From a candidate division FCPU426 bacterium (lineage in GTDB: Bacteria > Oederibacteriota > PGYV01 > Palsa-1178), in NCBI GenBank assembly GCA_003159495.1, contig PLPI01000054.1, forward strand, positions 8,409-72,408: a stretch of DNA of 64,000 bases, written 5' to 3'. This document shows positions 2,572 through 55,686 of the stretch, in pieces. Position 1 is the first letter of the stretch. Every line of letters starts with the position of its first letter. The notes beneath the pieces are model-generated. The model worked only from the letters and a program-made list of their open reading frames with translations, did no database searches and was not told the origin of the DNA. The position numbers and the translations under genes were made by a program.

Positions 2572-3495
2572 ATGAGACAGGAAGAACTTGACAGGACTAT
2601 ACAGGCGCTGCTTTTTACCTCGGACAAGCCGTTATCCGGAGGCGTGATAGCCGGCGTTGTGGAAAAAAAGGAAAAGGAAGTGGCCGAGGCGGTGCAGCGC
2701 ATAAATTCCCACCTGCATGAGACGGGCTCGCCTGTTTCCATCAGGGAGATTGCAGGCGGCTATGAATTTTTGACGCTGCCGGAATACGCGCCGCACATCA
2801 AAAAGCTTTACAAGAACAGGTTCATGACGAGGCTCTCGAGGCCGTCGCTTGAAGTGCTTGCCATAATAGCGTACAAACAGCCCATAACAAAACAGGAAGT
2901 GGAATCCATCCGCGGGGTTAACTCCGACGGTGTTTACCACACGCTGCTCGAAAGAAAACTTGTGAAGATAGCCGGAAGAAAAGAGGCGCCTGGAAGGCCC
3001 CTTCTTTACGGCACCACAAAGGAATTTATGCAGTACCTGGGCATAAATTCAATGGACGACCTGCCGAAAATAGAAGAGATAAAATCAATACTTGAAAAAG
3101 ACGAGTTCACCGAAAGCTGGGAAGACAGGATAGAAGTGGCAAAAAACCAGGCACAGTTCCAGTTCGACCCGGAACAGGGCAAACAGACTCCGGGCGTAAA
3201 GGTTACATCGCTTGCCGAGGATTTATCGGCAATGGAAAAAGAAGATGCGGATTTAAAGGAAAAGTTTAAGGTTGAGAATGAGGAAAAAGAAAAAGAGAAT
3301 GGGGGCGATGACGTGGAAATTAAGGATGATGAAATAAAAGAGGATGATGAACTGAAAGGCGAAGGCGAAGACGGTGATGAAGACGAAGAAGACGAGGACG
3401 ATGACGATAAAGAAGATGAGGATGACGACGAAGACGAAGATGAGGACGATGACGATGAAGATGAAGATGAAGAGCAGGAGGATGAAAAGCAATGA
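2572..3495 (+). CDS. scpB: Segregation and condensation protein B with an ~120-aa poly-acidic C-terminal tail
   Basis: ScpB-like N-terminal tandem winged-helix region (IQALLFTSDKPLS...). The 3' third encodes almost pure D/E/K low complexity. Confidence 0.8.
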   Translation: MRQEELDRTIQALLFTSDKPLSGGVIAGVVEKKEKEVAEAVQRINSHLHETGSPVSIREIAGGYEFLTLPEYAPHIKKLYKNRFMTRLSRPSLEVLAIIAYKQPITKQEVESIRGVNSDGVYHTLLERKLVKIAGRKEAPGRPLLYGTTKEFMQYLGINSMDDLPKIEEIKSILEKDEFTESWEDRIEVAKNQAQFQFDPEQGKQTPGVKVTSLAEDLSAMEKEDADLKEKFKVENEEKEKENGGDDVEIKDDEIKEDDELKGEGEDGDEDEEDEDDDDKEDEDDDEDEDEDDDDEDEDEEQEDEKQ

Positions 3496-4280
3496 GCATG
3501 CGTAAGCCTGGTTCGGGCGGCGGCGAGTCAAAGCCCCGGCAGGACGAACTGCACGGCAACGGGATGAAACTCCAGCAGTTTATAGCGCATGCGGGTATAA
3601 CGTCAAGGCGCAAAGCCGAAGAATTCATCCGTGAAGGCAGGGTTACGATCAACGGCAGTGTTGTGAAAGATGTGACAGCACGGGTGAACGAATCAAAGGA
3701 CCATGTGAAAGTAGACGGCTCGCTCATACGACAGGAAGCTAAAATATATATTGTAATGAACAAACCCGAGGGATGCATAACGACGGTTTCCGACGACAAG
3801 GGCAGGCCGACTGTGGTTGACCTGTTAAAACCCACCATCAGGGAACGGATTTACCCGGTCGGCAGGCTGGATTTTAACACCACCGGGACGCTGATGCTGA
3901 CCAATGACGGAGATTTCGCCAACAGCGTCATGCACCCGAGTTTTGAAATCGAGAAAAAATATACCGCAAAACTTCAGGGCAGGATAAGCAGTTTTGCCTT
4001 GAACAGGCTGAAAAAAGGGGTTAAAATAGGCGACGAACGCAGGTTCGTAAGGCCTGCTGACGCAGGGTTGTACAAGCGAAACGATGCCAATGATGTAATT
4101 TACATAGTCATCAGGGAAGGCATGAACCACCAGGTAAAAAAAATGATAGAAGCCGTCGGAGCCTCGGTTGTCAGGCTTCGCAGGGAAAATGTGGGAAAAA
4201 TAAGCGACAGGGGGCTCTCCGCCGGGCAGTGGCGGTACCTGACGCCCGATGAGATTAAATATTTCAAAAGGGGCAAATGA
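3492..4280 (+). CDS. rluB: Pseudouridine synthase, RsuA/RluB family, with an S4 RNA-binding domain
   Basis: S4 domain (GITSRRKAEEFIREGRVTING) plus catalytic GRLD motif (YPVGRLDFNTTGTLMLTNDG). An alternative in-frame ATG lies at 3564. Confidence 0.7.
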   Translation: MSMRKPGSGGGESKPRQDELHGNGMKLQQFIAHAGITSRRKAEEFIREGRVTINGSVVKDVTARVNESKDHVKVDGSLIRQEAKIYIVMNKPEGCITTVSDDKGRPTVVDLLKPTIRERIYPVGRLDFNTTGTLMLTNDGDFANSVMHPSFEIEKKYTAKLQGRISSFALNRLKKGVKIGDERRFVRPADAGLYKRNDANDVIYIVIREGMNHQVKKMIEAVGASVVRLRRENVGKISDRGLSAGQWRYLTPDEIKYFKRGK

Positions 4281-4283
4281 CGG

Positions 4284-5351
4284 ATGAAAAATCTCGGCAG
4301 CGTAAGGAAGAAAATTGACGGCATAGACCTCAAAATAGCCGCGCTTTTGCAAAAACGCGCGGCTGTTTCAAAAAAGGTAGCCGGGATAAAACATCAGCAG
4401 GATAAAAAGATATACGACCCGGCGCGCGAGGTTGAGGTGTTAAAGAACGTCCTGGCCGTAAAGGGGGACCTTTCCCCCGAAGGGCTCAAGGCTATTTATA
4501 ACGAGATCATGTCCGAGTCGAGAAAACTCCAGAAAAAAATAAGCGTGGCATATCTGGGCCCGGTGGCGTCATATTCACACGAAGCAGCCATGAAGCATTT
4601 CGGGAAACAGACCGGATACCTGGCTGTAAATTCCATAAAAGAGGTATTTGAAGAGGTTGAAAAGGGCAACGCCGATTACGGCTGTGTGCCGATTGAAAAC
4701 TCCACCGAAGGCGCGGTGAATTATTCCTTTGATATGTTCGCCGATTCGGAACTGAAGATAATTTCAGAGACCATGCTGGACATAAATCACTGCCTTTTGT
4801 CCAATGAAAAATCCCTGAAAGATATAAAGGTTCTTTACGTACATCCGCAGACGCTCGGACAGTGCAGGGGATGGATAGATTCAAACCTTCCGGGTGTTGT
4901 CATAAAAGAGGCTTCGTCAAATTCAAAATCGGCCATGCTTTCGGCCTCTGAAAAAGGCTCCGCGGGAATTGCCGCGTCGCTTGCGTCGGCCGTTTACGGC
5001 GTAAAAATATTGGCAAACTCGATACAGGACCTCTCCGATAACGTGACCAGGTTCTTCATACTCGGCCGGCAGTCCACTGCAAAGACCGGGGACGACAAAA
5101 CTTCGATCATGGTTTCGATAAAGGACAAAGTCGGGGCGCTCTTTTTGTTGTTAAGGCCATTCACGAAATACGGCCTCAACCTGACCGGCATAGAGTCCAG
5201 GCCGTCAAAAAAGAAAGCATGGGATTATTTTTTCTTTGTTGATTTTTGCGGACATATGGCTGACGCCAGGGTAAAAAAGGCCCTTGCCGAGGTTGAAAAA
5301 CACTGCGGCGCGGTTAAAGTACTGGGTTCATACCCGAGATTTTCAAGATAA
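4284..5351 (+). CDS. pheA: Bifunctional chorismate mutase / prephenate dehydratase (P-protein)
   Basis: N-terminal AroQ chorismate mutase region, central PDT region, C-terminal ACT domain with ESRP and FFVD motifs. Confidence 0.85.
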   Translation: MKNLGSVRKKIDGIDLKIAALLQKRAAVSKKVAGIKHQQDKKIYDPAREVEVLKNVLAVKGDLSPEGLKAIYNEIMSESRKLQKKISVAYLGPVASYSHEAAMKHFGKQTGYLAVNSIKEVFEEVEKGNADYGCVPIENSTEGAVNYSFDMFADSELKIISETMLDINHCLLSNEKSLKDIKVLYVHPQTLGQCRGWIDSNLPGVVIKEASSNSKSAMLSASEKGSAGIAASLASAVYGVKILANSIQDLSDNVTRFFILGRQSTAKTGDDKTSIMVSIKDKVGALFLLLRPFTKYGLNLTGIESRPSKKKAWDYFFFVDFCGHMADARVKKALAEVEKHCGAVKVLGSYPRFSR

Positions 5352-5384
5352 AGGAATGCCGGAAGAAAAATACGTTTCCGGTTT

Positions 5385-5497
5385 GTTCCCGGTATATGAC
5401 ATTTTTATTGGATTGCCGCCCGGTATAATATAGACGGCCCCTGCGGGGCCATCATATGAGCGGCGCAAGGCCAATAAAAATGTCATATACCGGGAAC
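5385..5497. repeat. 113-bp MITE-like element with perfect 27-bp terminal inverted repeats
   Basis: 5385-5411 gttcccggtatatgacatttttattgg is the exact reverse complement of 5471-5497. The interior carries the GC hairpin ggcccctgcggggcc and a catatgagcggcgcaagg block shared with repeats at 23331 and 23747. Confidence 0.6.
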
Positions 5498-5589
5498 CAT
5501 GTAACAATGTGCCGTTTTTAGACGGTACAAAAGAATGAGCGTCTGAAGAATTTGTTGGTTTTTAATTTCAAAAATATAAAGGAGAAAAC

Positions 5590-6615
5590 ATGGCAAGGTC
5601 CGACCTTTACAAAAAAGCCGGCGTTGATATTGACGCGGCAGCCGGGGCCCTCAAAAGGGCAAAAACTTTCATCAAATCCACGTTTAATAAGAATGTCGCG
5701 GTCGATATAGGAAGCTTCGGCGGCGTTTATAAGATATCAAAGGACAAGTTCCTCGTTGCGTCGACGGACGGTGTCGGGACAAAGCTTAAAGTTGCGCAGC
5801 AGCTGGGCATCCACACAACGGTCGGACAGGATATAGTCAACCACTGCACGAACGATATACTTGTAATGGGAGCCAGACCGCTATTTTTTCTCGATTATTT
5901 TGGAACGGGAAAACTTGAGGGTAAAATACTCGTTGACGTGATTAACGGCCTTTCGAAGGCTTGCAGGGAGAACGGCTGCGTTTTGATAGGCGGCGAGACA
6001 GCCGAAATGCCCGGGCTTTATAAAAAAGGGGATTATGACCTGGTGGGGACGATTATCGGGGAAATAAACAATTCACGGATTATAACCGGTGAAAAGGTAA
6101 AACACGGCGATATTATACTGGGGCTTGCGTCGGCCGGGCTGCACACAAACGGATTTTCGCTTGCAAGGAGCGTTTTTGAGGCGGCGAAAATTCCATATAC
6201 TAAAAAAATAAGGGAACTCGGCACGACTCTCGGAGCGGCGCTTTTAAAACCGCACCGCTCATACCTGAATTCGGTGTTCCCGGCCGTGGAAAAATATTTC
6301 GGCTTCATTCACGGCATGGCACACCTGACGGGCGGCGGCTTTTACGACAATATAAACAGGGTGCTGCCGGACAACTGCGACGCGGTATGCCTGCGCGGTA
6401 CATGGCCGGTACTTCCAGTATTTAACCTTATCCAGAAAACCGGCAGCGTGGGGTGGCAGGAGATGCACAGGGTCTTTAATATGGGCATCGGCCTCACAAT
6501 GATTGTTGATAAGACCATGGCAAAAGAGATAGCGGCATTTATCGCAAAAAAAGGGGAAAAGGTTTTTGAAATAGGCCAGGTCATAAAAGGCAGCGGCAAA
6601 GTCATAGTCGAATAG
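5590..6615 (+). CDS. purM: Phosphoribosylformylglycinamidine cyclo-ligase (AIR synthetase)
   Basis: PurM N-terminal motif (DAGVDIDA), GETAEMPG motif, 341 aa. Strong RBS AAGGAG. Confidence 0.9.
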   Translation: MARSDLYKKAGVDIDAAAGALKRAKTFIKSTFNKNVAVDIGSFGGVYKISKDKFLVASTDGVGTKLKVAQQLGIHTTVGQDIVNHCTNDILVMGARPLFFLDYFGTGKLEGKILVDVINGLSKACRENGCVLIGGETAEMPGLYKKGDYDLVGTIIGEINNSRIITGEKVKHGDIILGLASAGLHTNGFSLARSVFEAAKIPYTKKIRELGTTLGAALLKPHRSYLNSVFPAVEKYFGFIHGMAHLTGGGFYDNINRVLPDNCDAVCLRGTWPVLPVFNLIQKTGSVGWQEMHRVFNMGIGLTMIVDKTMAKEIAAFIAKKGEKVFEIGQVIKGSGKVIVE

Positions 6616-12656: not shown

Positions 12657-12685
12657 TTGACAAACAGGTAAATGCCGGGTATAAT
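12657..12685 (+). promoter_or_regulatory. Consensus sigma70-type promoter upstream of the nifU-like gene
   Basis: TTGACA (12657-12662), 17-nt spacer, TATAAT (12680-12685). Confidence 0.5.
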
Positions 12686-13020: not shown

Positions 13021-13067
13021 TGGAAAATTAAAAAGGTAAAATCTGAAACCAAAAAGAAATAAAAAAA

Positions 13068-13094
13068 GGCGGCGTTTTTACACCGCCTTTTTTT
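13068..13094. terminator. Intrinsic terminator between convergent genes
   Basis: ggcggcg-tttttaca-ccgcc hairpin followed by a T-run. An A-run precedes it, so it can serve both strands. Confidence 0.5.
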
Positions 13095-13100
13095 ATTTTA

Positions 13101-13134
13101 AATGTTCTTTTTGGTTTTGAGTTTTACATTTTAA
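13101..13134 (+). repeat. T-motif repeat copy 2
   Basis: aatgttctttttggttttgagttttacattttaa. Confidence 0.55.
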
Positions 13135-17626: not shown

Positions 17627-17746
17627 TAAAAACTCCTTAAATTCAAAAGTTAAAATGCAAAACCAATAATTACAACTGTAAAAGTTGACAAGTGAAACAG
17701 GGCAAAGCCGCCCTGCTCCAATATTTTTATTACTTTGAAATTTAAT

Positions 17747-17787
17747 AGTTGCACTTTTTGGTTTTGACTTTTGACTTTTAACTTTTC
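17747..17787 (+). repeat. T-motif repeat copy 3, in a divergent promoter region
   Basis: agttgcactttttggttttgacttttgacttttaacttttcc. Confidence 0.55.
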
Positions 17788-20870: not shown

Positions 20871-20909
20871 AGTTATAATTTTTGGTTTTGAATTTTAACT
20901 TTATAATTT
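20871..20909 (+). repeat. T-motif repeat copy 4, with an adjacent partial inverted copy (caaaatcaaaaag) on its 5' side
   Basis: agttataatttttggttttgaattttaactttataattt. Confidence 0.55.
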
Positions 20910-21619: not shown

Positions 21620-22456
21620 TTAATAAAATTCAAGCCTGTCTATCCAGATATCAACCCTGCGGCCGTTGCCGTTCATATACTGCCATTTAATAATATTGGC
21701 GTCGGACAACACATCCTCGATGGAAACCAGATATTCCGGTTTTGTCCCGGCCGGCTGTCTTAAATCTTTCCTGAAGTCGATCTTTACCTTTTTCCAGCGC
21801 GGGGTAATGTATTTTGTGATATCCGCCCCGTAATCGGCATAGCTGGTCAGCGACCTGCAGATGCCGCGTGAGGCGTCTATCCGGCGCGATTCGTGCGGCA
21901 GCATGAAAATAACATTTCCGGCAGTGACCGAACCTTTTATCATGAACTCAATACCGCTGAATTTTGAAAGGTCTATGCCGACGCATTCGGGGCAGGTTGA
22001 GTGGGGGCTTAAAAAAGTAGTTACCCCTATATAATCATCGCCGAGTTTTGTGCCGGCTGTTCCCGTTATCCTTACGGCGTAGCCTTTTCCCGTGCAGCCC
22101 GGGGAACTTTTTACAAAGCTGTTTTCGCCGTTCTTTGAGGCCGGCGGCCAGACGACGGAATTGCCGCCCTGCCAGCTGTCGTTATATGTGCACCACACCC
22201 CGCCGAGTTCGTTGACACTGCTGTTGGTGTAATTATAATCTATCCTCATATAATAAGCCGCGGCCGCGACGACGAATATAATGGCATATACAGGCATAAG
22301 GCGCATGAATATGTGTGGCATCCCGGAGGCCGAAGAGGCTTTTTTTATGAGGGCGGCCCTTAACTTTGACATATTTTTTTCCAGGCCAATATTCCCGAAT
22401 TCGATCTTATCACTTTTCATTTTATAAGCCCTCGCTTTCATTTTTCCCTGCGTCAT
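21620..22456 (-). CDS. Putative anti-sigma factor: short cytoplasmic N-terminus, one TM helix, extracytoplasmic CBM-like sensor domain
   Basis: Lies immediately downstream of, and overlapping, the ECF sigma gene. TM segment LMPVYAIIFVVAAAAYY. C-terminal domain paralogous to 20952-21590. Start codon uncertain. Confidence 0.5.
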   Translation of the reverse strand: MTQGKMKARAYKMKSDKIEFGNIGLEKNMSKLRAALIKKASSASGMPHIFMRLMPVYAIIFVVAAAAYYMRIDYNYTNSSVNELGGVWCTYNDSWQGGNSVVWPPASKNGENSFVKSSPGCTGKGYAVRITGTAGTKLGDDYIGVTTFLSPHSTCPECVGIDLSKFSGIEFMIKGSVTAGNVIFMLPHESRRIDASRGICRSLTSYADYGADITKYITPRWKKVKIDFRKDLRQPAGTKPEYLVSIEDVLSDANIIKWQYMNGNGRRVDIWIDRLEFY

Positions 22457-23060
22457 ATATAATGCCCGCGGCCGGATTTGGTTGCATTGAACCTCTTATC
22501 ATTGAAAGGCCGCGTGAAAGGATGGATTTTACAGTCCCCGCCTTTTTATTGAGCGCGGCGCTTATTTCGGATATCTTCATTGAATCAAAAAATCTCATGG
22601 AAAGGACTTCCTGGTAAAGCGGGGGAAGCTTTACCAGTTCCGCATGCACAAGAGCGAAAAGGCTGTTATTGTCTATTGCCTTCTGGGCGTTTTCAAGTTC
22701 CTCGTTCAGGCTGTTTGAGGAGCGCGGCTCGTAAGACGGTGAGTTTTCTATCAGCTCGTCAAGCGAAGCGGGCGCATATTTTTTTGACCTGAAATACATG
22801 TTAACTTCATTTGAGGCTATCCTGTAAAGCCATGCCGAAAACGACGCGCCCCGCCACCTGAACTGCCAGAGTTTGTTAAGGGCCTTGAAAAAAGTTTCTC
22901 CCGTTATGTCTTTGGCCGCTTCGGCATTGCCGGTGCGGTATGCCGCGTATTTTAATATTTTTAAGTGATAAAGGTCGAATAAAGCGCCAAAAGCGGCCGG
23001 ATCGCGCCGCGCCGCCTCGACCATTTCTTTTTCACTGATTTTATCCAAAGCCGCCTCCAT
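22422..23060 (-). CDS. RNA polymerase sigma-70 factor, ECF subfamily
   Basis: Region 2 (FGALFDLYHLKILKYAAYRTGN...AEDITGETFFKA) and region 4 HTH (LPPLYQEVLSMRFFDSMKISEISAALNKKAGTVKS). Start placed at MEAALDK. Confidence 0.8.
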   Translation of the reverse strand: MEAALDKISEKEMVEAARRDPAAFGALFDLYHLKILKYAAYRTGNAEAAKDITGETFFKALNKLWQFRWRGASFSAWLYRIASNEVNMYFRSKKYAPASLDELIENSPSYEPRSSNSLNEELENAQKAIDNNSLFALVHAELVKLPPLYQEVLSMRFFDSMKISEISAALNKKAGTVKSILSRGLSMIRGSMQPNPAAGIIYDAGKNESEGL

Positions 23061-23330
23061 AATTATGCTTTCATTATTATACAATGCACGGAGTAAAAAA
23101 AGGTTGCAAAATTCGGTGCCGCCCGGTATGTCGGCCCGGCTTGTGCTCGGTTGTTGCCGTGCGGGCGGAACTTTTTTAAGGCCGTCGTCCAAGTTTGCTT
23201 TAATGCCCGGTAAGAACATTGTTATTAAAGTTTTACCTCTGCTTAATTGACACGGTTCTTATTGTTGGACGCCAGCCATAAAAAAGTCCCGCCCGCACGG
23301 CACCAGGGTTACCGCATTTTCGCCCCTCTT

Positions 23331-23404
23331 AGGGGCCGGCTCATATGCCGGCCAGAACCAGCTCACAACCTCAATTTGTGAGCCGGCGCAAGGTTCATTA
23401 TTAA
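23331..23404 (+). repeat. GC-rich palindromic REP-like element R1, a 74-bp direct repeat of R2
   Basis: aggggccggctcatatgccggcc...gctcacaacctcaatttgtgagccggcgcaaggttcattattaa. 65 of 74 positions identical to 23747-23820. Internal palindromes ggccggc/gccggcc and gctcaca/tgtgagc. Confidence 0.6.
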
Positions 23405-23526
23405 TATTTATCCGGAACATTAGGCCGCGTAAAATGCGTCTAATATATCAAAGAGGAGTGAAGGTGCAGACTTTTATTTAAGCGGTATAACGGGTAAAAT
23501 GAAAGGAAAGGAAGGTGTGAAAATTA

Positions 23527-23708
23527 TGGAAGGAAAAAGGGATTACAGCGAGAAAGAGTCGAAAATAGAGGGAATAATGAGGACTTACAGTTTTGGCCGA
23601 AAAGCCGCTGAAAGAATATACGCCATGATAAAGGATACTGACATATTAAATTCTAATTTTCTGGATATTACGGATAGTGACCGCGATAAGGGACAAAAAA
23701 CAATGTAG
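23527..23708 (+). CDS. Small hydrophilic hypothetical protein flanked by the R1/R2 direct repeats
   Basis: 60-aa ORF with RBS AGGAAGGTG 8 nt upstream; an upstream in-frame ATG at 23499 would give 69 aa. No recognisable motif. Confidence 0.3.
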
Positions 23709-23746
23709 CGGGACACGCCGTTGGCTTGCCGTGTTTTTGTTTTCGT

Positions 23747-23820
23747 AGGGGCCGGCTCATATGCCGGCCCGAACCAGCTCCCAACCACATTTTATGCACA
23801 GGCGCAAGGTTCTTTATTAA
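23747..23820 (+). repeat. REP-like element R2, direct repeat of R1, fused to T-motif copy 5
   Basis: 88% identical to R1. Immediately followed by aattgtacttattggttttgcc (23835-23878). Confidence 0.6.
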
Positions 23821-23834
23821 CTTAAATAATTTTA

Positions 23835-23878
23835 AATTGTACTTATTGGTTTTGCCTTTTAGCCTTTACCTTATATTT
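23835..23878 (+). repeat. T-motif repeat copy 5
   Basis: aattgtacttattggttttgccttttagcctttaccttatattt. Same head-plus-tail arrangement as the element at the window start. Confidence 0.55.
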
Positions 23879-26330: not shown

Positions 26331-28445
26331 TTGGCGAACGACAAACATGACATTAACAGCAGGATAGAGATTATATATTTTGCGTTTACCGCGGTTTTTG
26401 TCGTTTTTGCGTTCCAGCTGGTAATACTGCAGGTGTTCCAGTACGGAAAATTCAGGGACCTGGCGCAGAAACAGCACCTTGAGACCGTGAAGCAGCAGAT
26501 TGGACGCGGTTCGATATTTACGGCCGACGGGAAAAAGCTGGCCATGTCAATCAAGGCATATTCCGTCTGCGCAAACCCGGGCGAGATAAAAAACAGGGCG
26601 GCCGTCGCGGATTATCTTTCAAAAAAGCTCGGCATAAGCAGGGCCGAAATATTTTCAAAGCTTAACACAAAAAAAGCATTTGTTTATATAGACAGAAAGG
26701 TGGATATAGACAAAGCGACATCGATATTTGACAGGGATATACCCGGCGTCTTTCCGCTTGTGGAGGAAAAACGCTACTATCCGCTCCAGGAAAACGGGGC
26801 AAATTTGGTGGGGTTTACCGGAATAGACGGCAACGGCCTTGAGGGGCTTGAAGGGTCCTTCGAAAAGTATTTACGCGGGAAGGTCGGGTTCATGCTGGTC
26901 AAACGCGATGTCAAGGGGCGCCCCATAATGACGGACACCGTGCAGGTAAAAAAAGCGGAAGCCGGCGGAGATCTTTATCTTACGATAGATTCAAACATAC
27001 AGTATTACGCACAGCAGGAACTCAAGACCGCGGTTGAGAAATACAAAGGCAAAACAGGCATGCTGGTGTCGCTGAATCCCAATACGGGCGCAATTTACGC
27101 GATGGCAAACTATCCGACTTTTAACCCGAATGATTTTAACAGGTACCCGGCGGAACTCAGAAAGAACAGGACCGTGACCGACGTTTTTGAACCGGGCTCG
27201 ACTTTCAAAATATTCACAATGGCGGCGATATTAAAGGACAGGCCGGCCGCATACAATGACAGGGTTTTTTGCGGAAACGGAAAAATGGCATTCGGCGACA
27301 GATGGGTGCATGACAATGAAAAACACGGATGGCTAACAGTACCCGATGTTATAAAATTTTCATCCAATATCGGCATGGTGGAGCTTGCCATGAAGCTCAG
27401 CAGGGACAGGCTTTATGATGAATATTCGGCTTTTGGATTCGGCAGGGAAACCGGTTCGGACCTTCCGGGAGAAGTAGGCGGAATTCTCCGCCCGGTTTCC
27501 CAGTGGGACGACTCGACAATGTCATCGATCCCTTACGGCCAGGAAGTGGCGGTAACGGCGGTACAGCTCGCGCGCGCTTATGCGGCTGTCGCAAACGGCG
27601 GATATTTGATAACCCCGTATATAGTTGACAGGGTGGTAAAGAACGGCTCGGTGGTGTACACGCACCCGCAGCCGCAGAAAGTAAAAATACTGGATGACGC
27701 GACCAGGGAGAAACTTATAAAAATGCTTGAAATGGTTGTTGAAAAGGACGGGACCGGAAAGAAAGCCGCTATGGCCGGCTACCAGGTTGCCGGAAAAACA
27801 GGGACGGCGCAAAAGCACAATCCAAACGGAAAGGGCTATGCTACGAATAAATACGTGTGTTCATTTATAGGATTTGTCCCCGCGGAAGATCCGCAAATAC
27901 TGACACTTGTCGTTGTAAACGAACCGGCTGCCATCTGGGCATTCGGAGGCGATGTGGCGGCGCCGGCCTTTAAAAATCTTTCGGGCGACATGATATCATA
28001 CCTTCACGTGGCCCCCGTCACCGGGGCGAAAACTTCGCCGCAGAACGCGGCCGCGGAAACAACGGTGAAAATGACTGATTTTTATATGAAACAGTTTACC
28101 GAGGCAAAGAGGGCGCTTTCGGCTGCATCGATAAAACTTGAAAAAATCGGCTACGGAAAAACAATCATAATGCAGAAACCCGCCGCAAATACTGAAATGA
28201 AAACGGGCGATACGGCGGTTGTATACCTGGCCGATACGGACGCAAAAGAAGGGCTGCGCATTTATATGCCGGACCTTAAAGGGTTGACCATAAGGAACGC
28301 CATAGAAATATTAAAGGTTTACGGGCTGAATGTAAAATGCGTAGGCAGCGGCACTGCCGTATCCCAGCAGCCAAACCCCGGTGTTGCGGTAAAAAAGGGA
28401 TCCGAATGCACGGTCAGCTTTGAACTTCAGGGGCGCCCGTTATGA
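26331..28445 (+). CDS. ftsI: Peptidoglycan D,D-transpeptidase FtsI (class B PBP) with two C-terminal PASTA domains
   Basis: STFK active-site serine motif (GSTFKIFT), SSN, KTGT. The last ~130 aa form two PASTA-like repeats. Confidence 0.85.
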   Translation: MANDKHDINSRIEIIYFAFTAVFVVFAFQLVILQVFQYGKFRDLAQKQHLETVKQQIGRGSIFTADGKKLAMSIKAYSVCANPGEIKNRAAVADYLSKKLGISRAEIFSKLNTKKAFVYIDRKVDIDKATSIFDRDIPGVFPLVEEKRYYPLQENGANLVGFTGIDGNGLEGLEGSFEKYLRGKVGFMLVKRDVKGRPIMTDTVQVKKAEAGGDLYLTIDSNIQYYAQQELKTAVEKYKGKTGMLVSLNPNTGAIYAMANYPTFNPNDFNRYPAELRKNRTVTDVFEPGSTFKIFTMAAILKDRPAAYNDRVFCGNGKMAFGDRWVHDNEKHGWLTVPDVIKFSSNIGMVELAMKLSRDRLYDEYSAFGFGRETGSDLPGEVGGILRPVSQWDDSTMSSIPYGQEVAVTAVQLARAYAAVANGGYLITPYIVDRVVKNGSVVYTHPQPQKVKILDDATREKLIKMLEMVVEKDGTGKKAAMAGYQVAGKTGTAQKHNPNGKGYATNKYVCSFIGFVPAEDPQILTLVVVNEPAAIWAFGGDVAAPAFKNLSGDMISYLHVAPVTGAKTSPQNAAAETTVKMTDFYMKQFTEAKRALSAASIKLEKIGYGKTIIMQKPAANTEMKTGDTAVVYLADTDAKEGLRIYMPDLKGLTIRNAIEILKVYGLNVKCVGSGTAVSQQPNPGVAVKKGSECTVSFELQGRPL

Positions 28446-31384
28446 AAAAAATGAACTTGAAAACCCTGCTTGGAAACTCCGGCTCATATACCGTTTTGCA
28501 GGGGGCCGCGGATATGGATATAACGGATATCGCCGAATCGGCTTCCACGGCGAAAAATGGATCCGTGTTTTTCTGCGTCCGGGGGATAAAAAAAGACGGA
28601 CATGATTTCATTCCGGAAGCGGTAAAAAACGGGGTATCCGCCATAATAGTTGAAAATGACGTAAGGGTAAAAGAAGGCACGGCGGTCATCAGGGTAAAAA
28701 ACGCCAGGGAAGCCATGTTTTACGCGGCTGACAAATTTTACGCCGGTGAAAAGAAAAAAGTCAGTGTGATTGCGATAACAGGGACAAAGGGAAAGACCAC
28801 GGTATCGTATCTTATAGATGCGCTATTAAAGCAACAGACGGGCCGGGAAAACGCCGTGGTAGGAACCATAGGATACAGGATAGGAAAAAAACATTATCCC
28901 GCCGGCAATACCACGCCTTCAAATATAAAGGTTCATAAGCTTATAGCCATGGCCGCGCGCGCCGGGATAAAATATTTTATCATTGAGGCGTCCTCGGAGG
29001 CGCTTGACCAGGGCAGGCTGAGGAATATTGATGTGGATTCCGTTGTGGTTACGAACGTCACCAGGGATCATTTTGATTACCATAAAAATTTCGCCAATTA
29101 TCTGAAGGCAAAAATGATCGTGATATCGAACATGAAAAAGGGCGGAAGGTTTGTCGTCAATATCGACTCGAAAGGCAGCAGGGAAATGGTTGCCGGGGCG
29201 CGGGCGAAAACCGCGGACATTATTACATGCTCGACTAAAAAAAAGGCCGGCATAAGGCTCCTGAAATATTCGCTGGATATCAAAGGCACGGATTTTACGC
29301 TGGATGTAAAGGGAAAGAAGATGGAAATATCGACGGAACTTGTGGGCATGCATAATATTTACAACATTATGTCGGCTATAGGCGCGGTTAAGGGGATAGT
29401 ATCCGGGAATAATATGATAAAAGCACTGGCTGATTTCAAAACTGTCGACGGCAGGCTTGACAGGGCATACAGCGGGGAATTTGACGTTATTGTGGATTAT
29501 GCGCATACGCCTGATTCGATGGAAAAAACACTGACTGCGCTCAACGCCCTGAAAAAGGGGCGGGTTATAACGGTCTTCGGAGCCGGCGGCAACAAGGACC
29601 GTGGAAAAAGGCCGTTGATGGGGGCCATCGCGGAAAAGCTCAGTGACGAGGTCATCGTGACATCCGATAACCCGCGCTACGAGGAACCCGGAAAAATAAT
29701 AGCTGACATTATGAATGGCGTCAGGCGGAAAAAAGATATCATGATAGTTCCCGACAGGAGGCTGGCCATTGCCGCCGCCGTAAAGAAAGCAGTTAAGGAC
29801 GATATTGTGCTCATAGCCGGAAAGGGCCATGAAACCTACCAGGAAATAAAGGGAAAAAGGCACCCGTTCGAGGACAAGAAGGTTGCACTTGAAATGATAA
29901 AAAAACACAGGGGCGTAAAAAAAATATATTTATCCGGGTTATTAAAAAACATGAATTACAGCTTGCTTTCGGGGGGCACGGAAATTGAAATAAAAGGCGT
30001 CGAAGATAATTCATGGAGGGTTAAAAAGGGATTTCTTTTTATAGCTGTAAAGGGATTTTCCCATGACGGCCATGATTATATCGCCGAAGCCGTAAAACGC
30101 GGAGCGGCCGCCGTGCTGGTTGAAAAAAAAGTCAGGGTGCGCGGCGCGGCTGTGATAAAGGTTAAAAATACCAGGGAAGCGCTGTTTGAGATTACGGACA
30201 GGTTTTTCAGCGGCACGAAGGGAAAAATAAAAATAATAGGCGTTACCGGGACAAACGGGAAAACCACGGCGGTTTACATGACGGACGGCATACTAAGGGC
30301 TGAATACGGCGGGAAGAACGCCGTTGCCGGAACCATAGAATACAAGGTCGGAAAAAACTATTATCCGTCCATTAACACAACGCCGTCGAACGTGATCCTT
30401 CACAGGCTCATAGAAGAGGCCGTGGGGAAAAAGTTGAAATATTTTATAATGGAAGTTTCCTCGCACGCGCTGGACCAGGACAGGATAAAGAATATCGAAC
30501 TTGATACCGCCGTTGTTACCAATGTAACGCGGGATCATTTTGATTACCATAAAAATTTCAGGAATTACCTCGCGGCAAAACTGAAAATAGTTGATGCGAT
30601 GCGGGAGGGCGGAAGGCTTGTCATAAATCTTGACGATGCCAGCTCCGGGAAATTCATCGCCGCCGCAAAAAAACGCCGGCTGAAAATACTGACATATTCC
30701 CTGAATAAAAAAAGGGCTGATATAAAGCCGGTCTCTTACAGCCTCGATATTAACGGCGTTACCGCGGAACTAGACATAAAGGGCAGCAGGGAAACGATAA
30801 GATGCAACCTTCCGGGCATTCATAATCTTTACAATATGATGTCAGCCGTTGGAGCGTGCCTCAACGAAGCCAGGATAAAATCGATAAAAAGAGGCATTGA
30901 AAACCTGAAAAGCGTGAACGGCAGGACCGAGATGGTTTATGACGGAAATTTTAAGGTGATGGTGGATTACGCGCACACGCCTGACGCGCTTGAACAGGTC
31001 CTTTCAACGCTTGCAAAGGTGAAAAAGGGAAGGCTCATAACCGTATTCGGGGCGCCGGGCAACAGGGACAGGGGCAAGAGGCCCCTTATGGGAAAAGTGG
31101 CCGAAAAACTCAGCGATACAGTGATAATAACTTCGGATAACACTGAAAATGAAAAACCAATGGACATAATAAACGAGGTTCTCGGAGGAGTCAGAAATCC
31201 CGGAAAGGCCGTAGTGGAGCCGGACAGAAGAAAAGCGATAAGGCTCGCAATAGGCGGGGCAAAACCCGGGGATGTGGTGCTCATCGCGGGCAAGGGCCAT
31301 GAAAAGTACCAGGACATTATGGGCAAAAAGTCAGCGTTCGAGGATAAAAACGAGGCGTTAAAAGCGCTGAAAGCGGCAAAATGA
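28442..31384 (+). CDS. murE: Tandem-fused double Mur ligase: two complete MurE-like modules in one 980-aa ORF
   Basis: Module 1 (aa 1-~500): P-loop GTKGKTT, DYAHTPD, GNKDRGKR, DNPR (meso-DAP-type). Module 2 (aa ~504-980, begins at an internal Met at nt 29951): P-loop GTNGKTT, DYAHTPD, GNRDRGKR, but DNTE in place of DNPR. No stop codon between the modules. Confidence 0.85.
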   Translation: MKKMNLKTLLGNSGSYTVLQGAADMDITDIAESASTAKNGSVFFCVRGIKKDGHDFIPEAVKNGVSAIIVENDVRVKEGTAVIRVKNAREAMFYAADKFYAGEKKKVSVIAITGTKGKTTVSYLIDALLKQQTGRENAVVGTIGYRIGKKHYPAGNTTPSNIKVHKLIAMAARAGIKYFIIEASSEALDQGRLRNIDVDSVVVTNVTRDHFDYHKNFANYLKAKMIVISNMKKGGRFVVNIDSKGSREMVAGARAKTADIITCSTKKKAGIRLLKYSLDIKGTDFTLDVKGKKMEISTELVGMHNIYNIMSAIGAVKGIVSGNNMIKALADFKTVDGRLDRAYSGEFDVIVDYAHTPDSMEKTLTALNALKKGRVITVFGAGGNKDRGKRPLMGAIAEKLSDEVIVTSDNPRYEEPGKIIADIMNGVRRKKDIMIVPDRRLAIAAAVKKAVKDDIVLIAGKGHETYQEIKGKRHPFEDKKVALEMIKKHRGVKKIYLSGLLKNMNYSLLSGGTEIEIKGVEDNSWRVKKGFLFIAVKGFSHDGHDYIAEAVKRGAAAVLVEKKVRVRGAAVIKVKNTREALFEITDRFFSGTKGKIKIIGVTGTNGKTTAVYMTDGILRAEYGGKNAVAGTIEYKVGKNYYPSINTTPSNVILHRLIEEAVGKKLKYFIMEVSSHALDQDRIKNIELDTAVVTNVTRDHFDYHKNFRNYLAAKLKIVDAMREGGRLVINLDDASSGKFIAAAKKRRLKILTYSLNKKRADIKPVSYSLDINGVTAELDIKGSRETIRCNLPGIHNLYNMMSAVGACLNEARIKSIKRGIENLKSVNGRTEMVYDGNFKVMVDYAHTPDALEQVLSTLAKVKKGRLITVFGAPGNRDRGKRPLMGKVAEKLSDTVIITSDNTENEKPMDIINEVLGGVRNPGKAVVEPDRRKAIRLAIGGAKPGDVVLIAGKGHEKYQDIMGKKSAFEDKNEALKALKAAK

Positions 31385-55528: not shown

Positions 55529-55532
55529 TAAT

Positions 55533-55686
55533 TTAAAATTTAAAAGGCAAAACCAAGAATTGCAATTTAACCCCATATAATTAATAAATTTATGTTGTTA
55601 TTTTTGTTGATTTTTAAGCGTCTCACCCGGTTTTGAACGGCAGAAAACAGCCGCTCTACTTTTTGGTTTATAATTTTAATTTTTGC
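55533..55686. repeat. Inverted pair of T-motif copies (55533-55570 reverse; 55654-55686 forward) bracketing about 85 bp, a MITE-like arrangement
   Basis: The reverse complement of 55533-55570 is aattgcaattcttggttttgccttttaaattttaaat; 55654-55686 is ctctactttttggtttataattttaatttttg. Confidence 0.45.

Follow-up and report, generated by a model that had tools for sequence, protein, structure and literature searches.

A perfect inverted repeat between pheA and purM is probably the core of a dispersed non-coding hairpin repeat in a candidate division FCPU426 bacterium

REP/REPIN elements with RAYT transposases, like the palindrome elements derived from IS200/IS605, form extragenic hairpins without target duplications. 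REPs are short (20–40 nt), carry a conserved 5' tetranucleotide, occur in inverted pairs and flank a RAYT gene, and elements of the REP and IS200/IS605 type probably move in folded single-stranded form, hence their orientation bias. The attC sites are imperfect palindromes of 57–141 nt that are found at the 3' end of genes in the gene orientation and are recognised by their structure while their sequence is free; they conserve the base (RYYYAAC...GTTRRRY) and vary the tip. Correia elements combine conservation of their terminal repeats with a TA duplication, and ERIC elements are found in both orientations with the whole sequence conserved.

The Correia elements (NEMIS) of Neisseria are non-coding intergenic repeats of ~100–200 bp with inverted repeats of ~26 nt; they are co-transcribed with their neighbours, their hairpins are cleaved by RNase III, some contain promoter boxes, and their presence or absence differs at the strain level (PMC10969869). 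ERIC (and YPAL) of enterobacteria and yersiniae are imperfect palindromes of ~127 bp in transcribed intergenic or intercistronic regions, which alter the stability of flanking mRNA segments (including effects of RNase E) and whose copy number varies strongly among related taxa (PMC10969869).

Here we describe an element in a 64,000-nt stretch of DNA from a candidate division FCPU426 bacterium (the window, i.e., the whole stretch that was analysed). An initial annotation had called it a MITE-like 113-bp element with perfect 27-bp terminal inverted repeats. The repeat itself was confirmed: the left arm at 5385–5411 (GTTCCCGGTATATGACATTTTTATTGG) and the right arm at 5471–5497 (both listed on the plus strand) are exact reverse complements over 27 nt, and the 27-mer is found in the window only at these two sites when up to 3 mismatches are allowed (0 of 100 shuffles had any match). 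Perfect inverted repeats of at least 14 nt and at most 150 nt apart number five in the window versus none in 20 shuffles. The apex (loop) region at 5412–5470 (plus strand) is the most conserved part of the family described below, and compensatory changes are seen in its stem pairs. It contains, all on the plus strand, GCCGCCCG (5415–5422), a TATAAT hexamer (5424–5429), a subfamily-specific GC hairpin GGCCCCTGCGGGGCC (5436–5450), the inner block CATATGAGCGGCGCAAGG (5453–5470) and AGCGGCGCA (5458–5466); the initial annotation had placed the hexamer and the GC hairpin correctly. We note that CCCGGTATA is found three times in the element (at 5388, at 5419 and inverted at 5486–5494). The 238-nt spacer that holds the element is predicted to fold stably, with -97 kcal/mol for the plus strand (z = -9.6) against -88 kcal/mol for the minus strand.

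The gene upstream is pheA (chorismate mutase/prephenate dehydratase; ORF at 4284–5351, plus strand, with Pfam domains CM_2, PDT and ACT; stop codon TAA at 5349–5351), and the gene downstream is purM (AIR synthase; ORF at 5590–6615, plus strand, with AIRS and AIRS_C). Homologues of PheA are named prephenate dehydratase, and they come under organism names such as Candidatus Goldbacteria/Goldiibacteriota. Eight contigs of other samples that match the window fully or at 99.9% identity carry this 238-nt spacer without a single base difference. In the sister species (L013; 95% amino-acid identity in PheA and ~90% DNA identity) the pheA-purM spacer is 73 nt long and lacks the element, with BLAST homology between the two running up to position 5356 of the window and then again from 5560. 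In two relatives whose PheA is 78% identical, the spacer measures 61–70 nt and is homologous to that of the sister species, and a more distant one (L009, 72% PheA identity) has a 134-nt pheA-purM spacer, again without the element. Because the relatives have short, element-free spacers, the ancestral state was empty and the window lineage gained ~180–200 nt; in the best-supported reading, the copy was acquired after the split from the ~90%-identical sister species. The relatives without the element share with the window a conserved motif upstream of purM (TTTGTTGGTTTTTAATTTC...) and the ribosome-binding site AAAGGAG (together 5551–5589, plus strand), so the insertion left both of them intact. 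Its place, downstream of the pheA stop codon and upstream of this motif and the ribosome-binding site, meant that neither gene was damaged.

The 113 bp cannot be the whole element, as had been proposed, because the segment absent from the sister species measures ~180–200 nt. Judging from these comparisons, the 113-nt hairpin forms the centre of a larger unit of roughly 180 nt (about 5357–5536). The left flank of the inserted unit (5357–5384, plus strand) was delimited by the end of sister-species homology at 5356, by flank alignment and by folding; it holds a local hairpin at 5358–5382 (GCCGGAAG...TTTCCGGT) followed by TTT, and shows ~65% similarity to its counterparts in other copies, for which the consensus is (G)TACCGGCGGAAA...GGGTTTT. 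The right flank (5498–5536, plus strand) has an uncertain right boundary, with BLAST homology to the sister species coming back only at 5560. It holds a local hairpin at 5508–5529 (TGTGCCGTT-TTTA-GACGGTACA), and within it GACGGTAC is similar to TTTCCGCCGGTAC, the right-hand outer repeat seen in other copies. No pairing between the left and right flanks was seen in the window copy.

The element is non-coding. In 60 public JGI contigs a 47-aa 'hypothetical protein' (MTFLLALRRS...; 5343–5486, minus strand) is annotated across it. Searches of 5.8 billion and of 1.84 billion proteins returned no relatives of this ORF (only itself and low-complexity proteins), and frame-shifting indels in other copies break it; by these comparisons the ORF is not a gene, and is an artefact of gene calling across the repeat. 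For the window and three further loci, no Rfam family reached its gathering threshold, and a permissive search gave only microRNA-precursor hairpins below threshold (30 bits versus 245, and 39 versus 59). A hammerhead-like CAGAUGAG in the apex was dropped as a candidate, since no ribozyme model scores.

We searched for other copies by pattern scans with 18-mers and then with covariance models over metagenome contigs. The inner-arm 18-mer identified two new cores in one sample, one between purH and a class-I aminoacyl-tRNA-synthetase-like gene (L017, 5774–5888) and one between an ABC ATPase and a miaB-like gene (L018, 9953–10067). A first covariance model, built from these two cores and the window core, found L018b (L018 3694–3806), L018c (L018 5050–5143), its counterpart L019c at the corresponding locus in L019 (which shares 99.7% identity with the L018 contig) and a copy in L009 (1456–1548), and further loci were found by covariance model in L026 (L026_1 at 3790–3883 and L026_2 at 1076–1170). 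Beyond the window this gives eight more copies at seven other loci, i.e., eight loci in all. A second covariance model, built from nine copies, confirmed every copy at 77–127 bits; it found one true copy only within the 64-kb window, and none in L007, L011, L013, L020, L023 and L027. The cores of subfamily A are ~95% identical to each other. Extrapolating roughly from three unselected copies in ~90 kb, the density would be about one copy per 30 kb. Uniqueness in the genome, which the initial annotation had named as grounds for refutation, was thus not what we observed, although the further copies are on other contigs, whose assignment to the window species relies on matching DNA distances.

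L019 shares an ENA sample with a window-identical contig, and the DNA distances to two reference organisms match (window to L008, 75.9%, versus L019 to L020, 76.6%; window to L009, 70.6%, versus L019 to L026, 71.3%), so L017, L018 and L019 most likely belong to the species of the window. The copies are confined to contigs most likely of this species and of one related species, where their neighbours are unrelated housekeeping genes; as far as the accessible data show, the family would be restricted to a few related Goldbacteria-like populations. Among 185,579 representative genomes (the source genome not being one of them), the terminal 18-mer gave only two single-arm chance matches, in a Methanosarcinaceae MAG and a Rhizobium. 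Empty sites were found elsewhere as well: L020–L022 (permease 88% identical) have stop-to-start junctions of 13–14 nt at all three L019 sites, where the L019 spacers with copies inside measure 202, 173 and 204 nt. Together with the pheA-purM site, this makes four empty sites in relatives. We also observed that the L018 (5026–5190) and L019 (11168–11332) versions of one 165-nt element have 5–6 differences, mostly in the arms, with one version perfectly paired and the other not, which could reflect a mutational hot spot, population heterogeneity or an assembly error at the hairpin.

From outside to inside, each unit consists of an outer inverted repeat, a linker, the long arms and the apex. The outer inverted repeat, (G)TACCGGCGGAAA(A) ... 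TTT(T)CCGCCGGTAC, is strong in L018c (GGTACCGGCGGAAA/TTTCCGCCGGTACC; z = -7.8), weak in four copies (z ~ -2), and its pairing is not detectable in the window copy, L009 and L026_1; for this reason the exact ends of the window copy are uncertain. The linker terminates in GGGTTT(T). The outer 12–20 nt of the long arms are completely different between subfamilies, the inner part is similar across subfamilies ((GAC)TTTTTT(A)AGG), and the apex GCCGCCCG-ATATTATAAGGGTTTTAG-CGGCGCC is nearly constant across copies. The window subfamily has an additional apex hairpin, GACGGCC(C/T)C...G(G/A)GGCCATC. Around the same apex, L018c, L009 and L026 have quite different arms, making the arms the least conserved part of the family.

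Pairing is nevertheless kept in these arms. In an alignment of the nine copies made by hand (which MAFFT left at 123 columns), 95.6% of cells are standard pairs, versus 38–49% when the partner column is slid, both sides have changed in 22 of 45 pairs, and the observed covariation was reached by 0 of 500 shuffles. G-U pairs make up 4 of 341 cells, and the arm mismatches are A.C (6) and G.U (3), i.e., no RNA-specific (G-U) signal was found in the arms. With A.C mismatches at least as frequent as G.U, what is kept is Watson-Crick complementarity on both strands, which is not specific to RNA. Template switching in quasi-palindromes is an established mutational process, and the covariation would fit equally well with a sense RNA, with a requirement for a DNA hairpin, or with such copying from arm to arm. 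The perfection of the arms had been taken to suggest recent mobility; since complementarity is kept across copies whose arms are completely different, arm perfection alone is no clock.

Other repeats in the window were compared with the element. A second long inverted repeat at 23152–23305 (no strand assigned; 41-nt arms, 88% complementary, 72-nt loop) has arms (GCGGGCGGAACTTTTTTAAGG) resembling those of L018c and a loop that is in part similar to the family apex; it matches the family model at 25 bits (E ~4e-5) with no strand preference. Given both likenesses, it is probably a distant family relative within a superfamily. Homologues of this repeat are found in L013 (5695–5842, at another locus) and in L001 (5579–5743, just left of the window start), and the repeat adjoins a sigma-factor gene (22422–23219, minus strand) at its predicted 5' end, or overlaps that end. 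The initial annotation had also seen the inner block recurring in two direct repeats of 78 nt, R1 (23327–23404) and R2 (23743–23820), which are 87% identical. This did not hold: at up to 3 mismatches the 18-mer has no match but itself (at least one match was found in 8 of 100 shuffles), R1 and R2 have in common with the block only GGCGCAAGG and GAGC across a 1-nt indel, and the family covariance model, run unfiltered, does not match them. With the 18-mer, the alignment and the covariance model all negative, kinship between R1/R2 and the pheA-purM element was rejected. R1 and R2 flank a small ORF (23499–23708, no Pfam match), and each holds a GC hairpin (GGCCGGC-TCATAT-GCCGGCC).

The window has further repeats and features. 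A motif of ~34 nt (AATTGTACTTTTTGGTTTTGCCTTT..ACTTTTA) is found in inverted pairs 60–100 nt apart (13031–13132, 17645–17780 and 55530–55685), one of them between convergent genes, around a terminator, and in single copies (50–83, 20871–20904 and 23835–23868; a degenerate one at 5551–5580). A weak form of the motif, conserved in relatives, lies just upstream of the purM ribosome-binding site. The motif may be promoter-like, or it may mark the two ends of a further small element with inverted repeats. A single 980-aa ORF (28442–31384) in a dcw-type cell-wall cluster has two full Mur ligase domain sets and is apparently a MurE-MurF fusion, whose paralogous halves are mirrored by DNA repeats (28841–29117 and 30308–30584). 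A run of GAA/GAC/GAT codons at 3350–3493 encodes an acidic low-complexity C-terminal tail of ScpB.

Direct signs of mobility were looked for. No consistent target-site duplication was found among the copies, and none borders the 27-nt arms (TTT/GTTCCC...GGGAAC/CAT, slashes marking the arm ends). Direct repeats of 7 nt are present at four copies (in the window, AGGAATG at 5352–5358 and AAGAATG at 5531–5537), but 75–97% of shuffled flanks also give 7-nt repeats, and they are not placed consistently with respect to the outer repeat. Pfam identified no transposase, integrase or Y1/RAYT protein in the 30 window ORFs scanned or in the Pfam tables of the loci, and the ~300 kb of locus sequence with such tables contain no Y1/RAYT or integrase gene. 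Four scans of viral contigs (arm, inner block, apex and outer repeat pair) gave no match, blastn of the 194-nt unit found nothing in plasmids or phages, and no IS with these ends was found in the genomes, viral contigs, plasmids and phages searched.

The element resembles Correia/NEMIS in its size, as a non-coding intergenic repeat with inverted repeats, and in its presence/absence variation. Unlike in Correia, its long arms vary and are not the ends, no duplication is demonstrable, and the strict sense orientation of the window-element family is no feature of Correia. Like ERIC, the family consists of palindromes in intercistronic regions; unlike ERIC, it is found in another phylum and has a conserved tip with free arms. 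Membership in either family is implausible from their host range (Neisseria; enterobacteria) and from the lack of a blastn match in plasmids or phages, and the likeness is functional only. From REPs the window element differs in being a single nested hairpin of 75–90 bp in which none of the REP features was seen; with this different architecture, and with no Y1_Tnp match on the scanned ORFs or in the locus tables, it does not belong to the REP/REPIN-RAYT elements. With attC the family shares the orientation along the gene and a structure that is kept over sequence, but it conserves the tip, its neighbours are syntenic housekeeping genes and not cassettes, and no integrase is present; its ends (GTTCCCG/CGGGAAC in the window copy, ATCCCCG elsewhere) do not place it among integron attC sites either.

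Taking these results together, we consider it probable that the inverted repeat in the window forms the core of a single copy, ~180 nt long, from a family of dispersed non-coding hairpin repeats. The best-supported account of the family is one of previously undescribed small palindromic intergenic repeats, MITE-, ERIC- and Correia-like and non-autonomous, and that of the pheA-purM copy is a recent, harmless insertion with no special relation to purM. The element would have been moved or copied in trans by an enzyme encoded elsewhere, and this enzyme would read the folded hairpin with the conserved apex and base, not the sequence of the 27-nt arms. Once inserted, the element would be co-transcribed with its neighbours and form a very stable hairpin in the mRNA, which may be cut by a double-strand-specific RNase or act as a barrier to exonucleases. 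Any effect on pheA or purM would then be a by-product through mRNA processing or stability; that their expression is affected at all we infer solely by analogy with Correia and ERIC.

All seven copies between co-directional genes are in sense orientation (two-sided binomial p ~0.016), and the eighth locus has convergent flanking genes. Copies begin within ~2–20 nt of a stop codon and reach almost to the ribosome-binding site that follows. The sense orientation, too, is among the evidence for the dispersed-repeat reading. Two other readings are in our view unlikely. According to the first, the host has selected the elements to punctuate operons, with the mRNA hairpin serving as an RNase III site or a stability barrier that sets the expression levels of the neighbours. 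In its favour are the placement between stop codon and ribosome-binding site in sense orientation, the pairing kept through many double changes and the slightly better fold of the sense strand in six of seven units. The same ABC-transporter operon junctions that hold the L019 copies are occupied in L023 (9846–9936 and 11127–11228) and L026 (11171–11260) by long hairpins of an unrelated family with GTCTCA/GATCTCA-like short units, which indicates that these junctions have been repeatedly colonised by hairpin elements. However, the element is dispensable, as relatives manage with junctions of 13–14 nt and the pheA-purM site of the sister species is empty; the complementarity is not RNA-specific; and selection against gene disruption alone would also restrict insertions to junctions. 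Several further perfect palindromes of 26–31 nt are found within 21 kb in L023.

The second of the two, which we would give no better chance, is a structure-specific single-stranded DNA mobile element, its folded hairpin being cut and pasted either by an HUH/Y1 enzyme of the IS200/IS605 or REP/RAYT kind or by a recombinase that recognises folded DNA. Integron integrases read attC as folded DNA, and replication-coupled strand-specific insertion is established for IS608 and ISDra2. The strict orientation bias of the copies suits insertion of this kind, and a missing target-site duplication, a stem that is free in sequence and kept in structure, and a conserved apex and base are all in its favour. 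Against it, Y1/RAYT and integrase genes are missing from the ~300 kb with Pfam tables, the sequence 5' of the element shows no short target motif that is conserved, and both the REP palindrome with its tetranucleotide and the attC core sites (RYYYAAC/GTTRRRY) are absent. A more specific proposal, for which we see a slim chance, takes the element as defined by structure and not as a MITE at all: the tip GCCGCCCG-ATATTATAAGGGTTTTAG-CGGCGCC and the base would be recognised with the Watson-Crick stem left free, and copies would either be inserted strand-specifically into stop-codon/ribosome-binding-site junctions by an enzyme acting on folded single-stranded DNA, or be kept by the host as an intercistronic processing signal.

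We think it quite improbable that the element is a portable promoter or small-RNA gene, in which the TATAAT-like box of the apex drives the downstream gene and keeps the element non-polar in operons. Eight of nine copies have a TATAAT/TATTAT box in the same place within the apex, three copies lie in junctions without another promoter, the organism does use canonical TTGACA-N17-TATAAT promoters (e.g. at 12657–12685), and Correia elements carry promoters (PMC10969869). Yet no -35 box is found at 16–18 nt, the nearest candidate being ATGACA 22 nt upstream of the TATAAT, and a sigma-70 promoter scan of the element made no call; one copy has CATGAT instead, and the box is an A/T palindrome, which in the other subfamily gives TATAAT when the opposite strand is read.

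A classical MITE, in which the 27-nt arms are the terminal inverted repeats bound by a DDE transposase, is in our view very improbable, even though the inverted repeat is perfect and the element is small, intergenic and multi-copy with known empty sites. We used the definition of a MITE given in PMC10969869 (section 2.1). The element is small (<500 bp; core 113 nt, unit ~180 nt) and non-coding, and has dispersed copies with insertion polymorphism (eight loci, four empty sites). As for terminal repeats (~4–30 bp), the perfect 27-nt repeat sits inside the inserted segment: the segment missing from the sister species (L013) reaches ~28 nt to the left and at least 40 nt to the right of the arms. 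The arms are also the part that differs most around the common apex (in L018c, L009 and L026), no duplication borders them, and no IS with GTTCCCGGTATATGAC-type ends was found; a related autonomous IS is lacking in the window, the loci, the plasmids, the phages and the viral contigs. The element is not AT-rich either (GC content 0.50 in the core and 0.46 in the unit, against 0.476 in the window). The label MITE-like is therefore kept in part: the element is repeated, non-coding, hairpin-forming and polymorphic for presence, but the arms, being least conserved, overrun by the unit and without a bordering target-site duplication, are not supported as transposon termini.

The remaining idea, a purM-specific riboswitch or attenuator (the initial annotation had considered a cis-regulatory structure ahead of purM) or an intrinsic pheA terminator, draws on the placement between the two genes, the very stable fold and the small hairpin followed by TTT at 5358–5384, but is extremely improbable and was rejected, because the same core lies in unrelated junctions beside purH/aaRS, ABC transporter and miaB genes and is absent from close relatives with the same pheA-purM order, and also in view of the lack of an Rfam match (purine and ZTP riboswitches included) and of a U-tract following the 27-bp stem.

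If the dispersed-repeat reading is right, it adds, for a candidate phylum without cultured members, a family of small palindromic intergenic repeats that had not been described before, and corrects an annotation artefact, the 47-aa 'hypothetical protein'. The family has an unusual combination of a conserved tip, arms that are completely turned over yet stay perfectly complementary, a strict sense orientation and a preference for stop-codon/ribosome-binding-site junctions. Should there be no dedicated mechanism behind this combination, the repeats would be ordinary selfish DNA and the pheA-purM copy would have no regulatory meaning; should there be one, the family would offer a handle on hairpin-DNA mobilisation without target duplications, or on the punctuation of operon transcripts.
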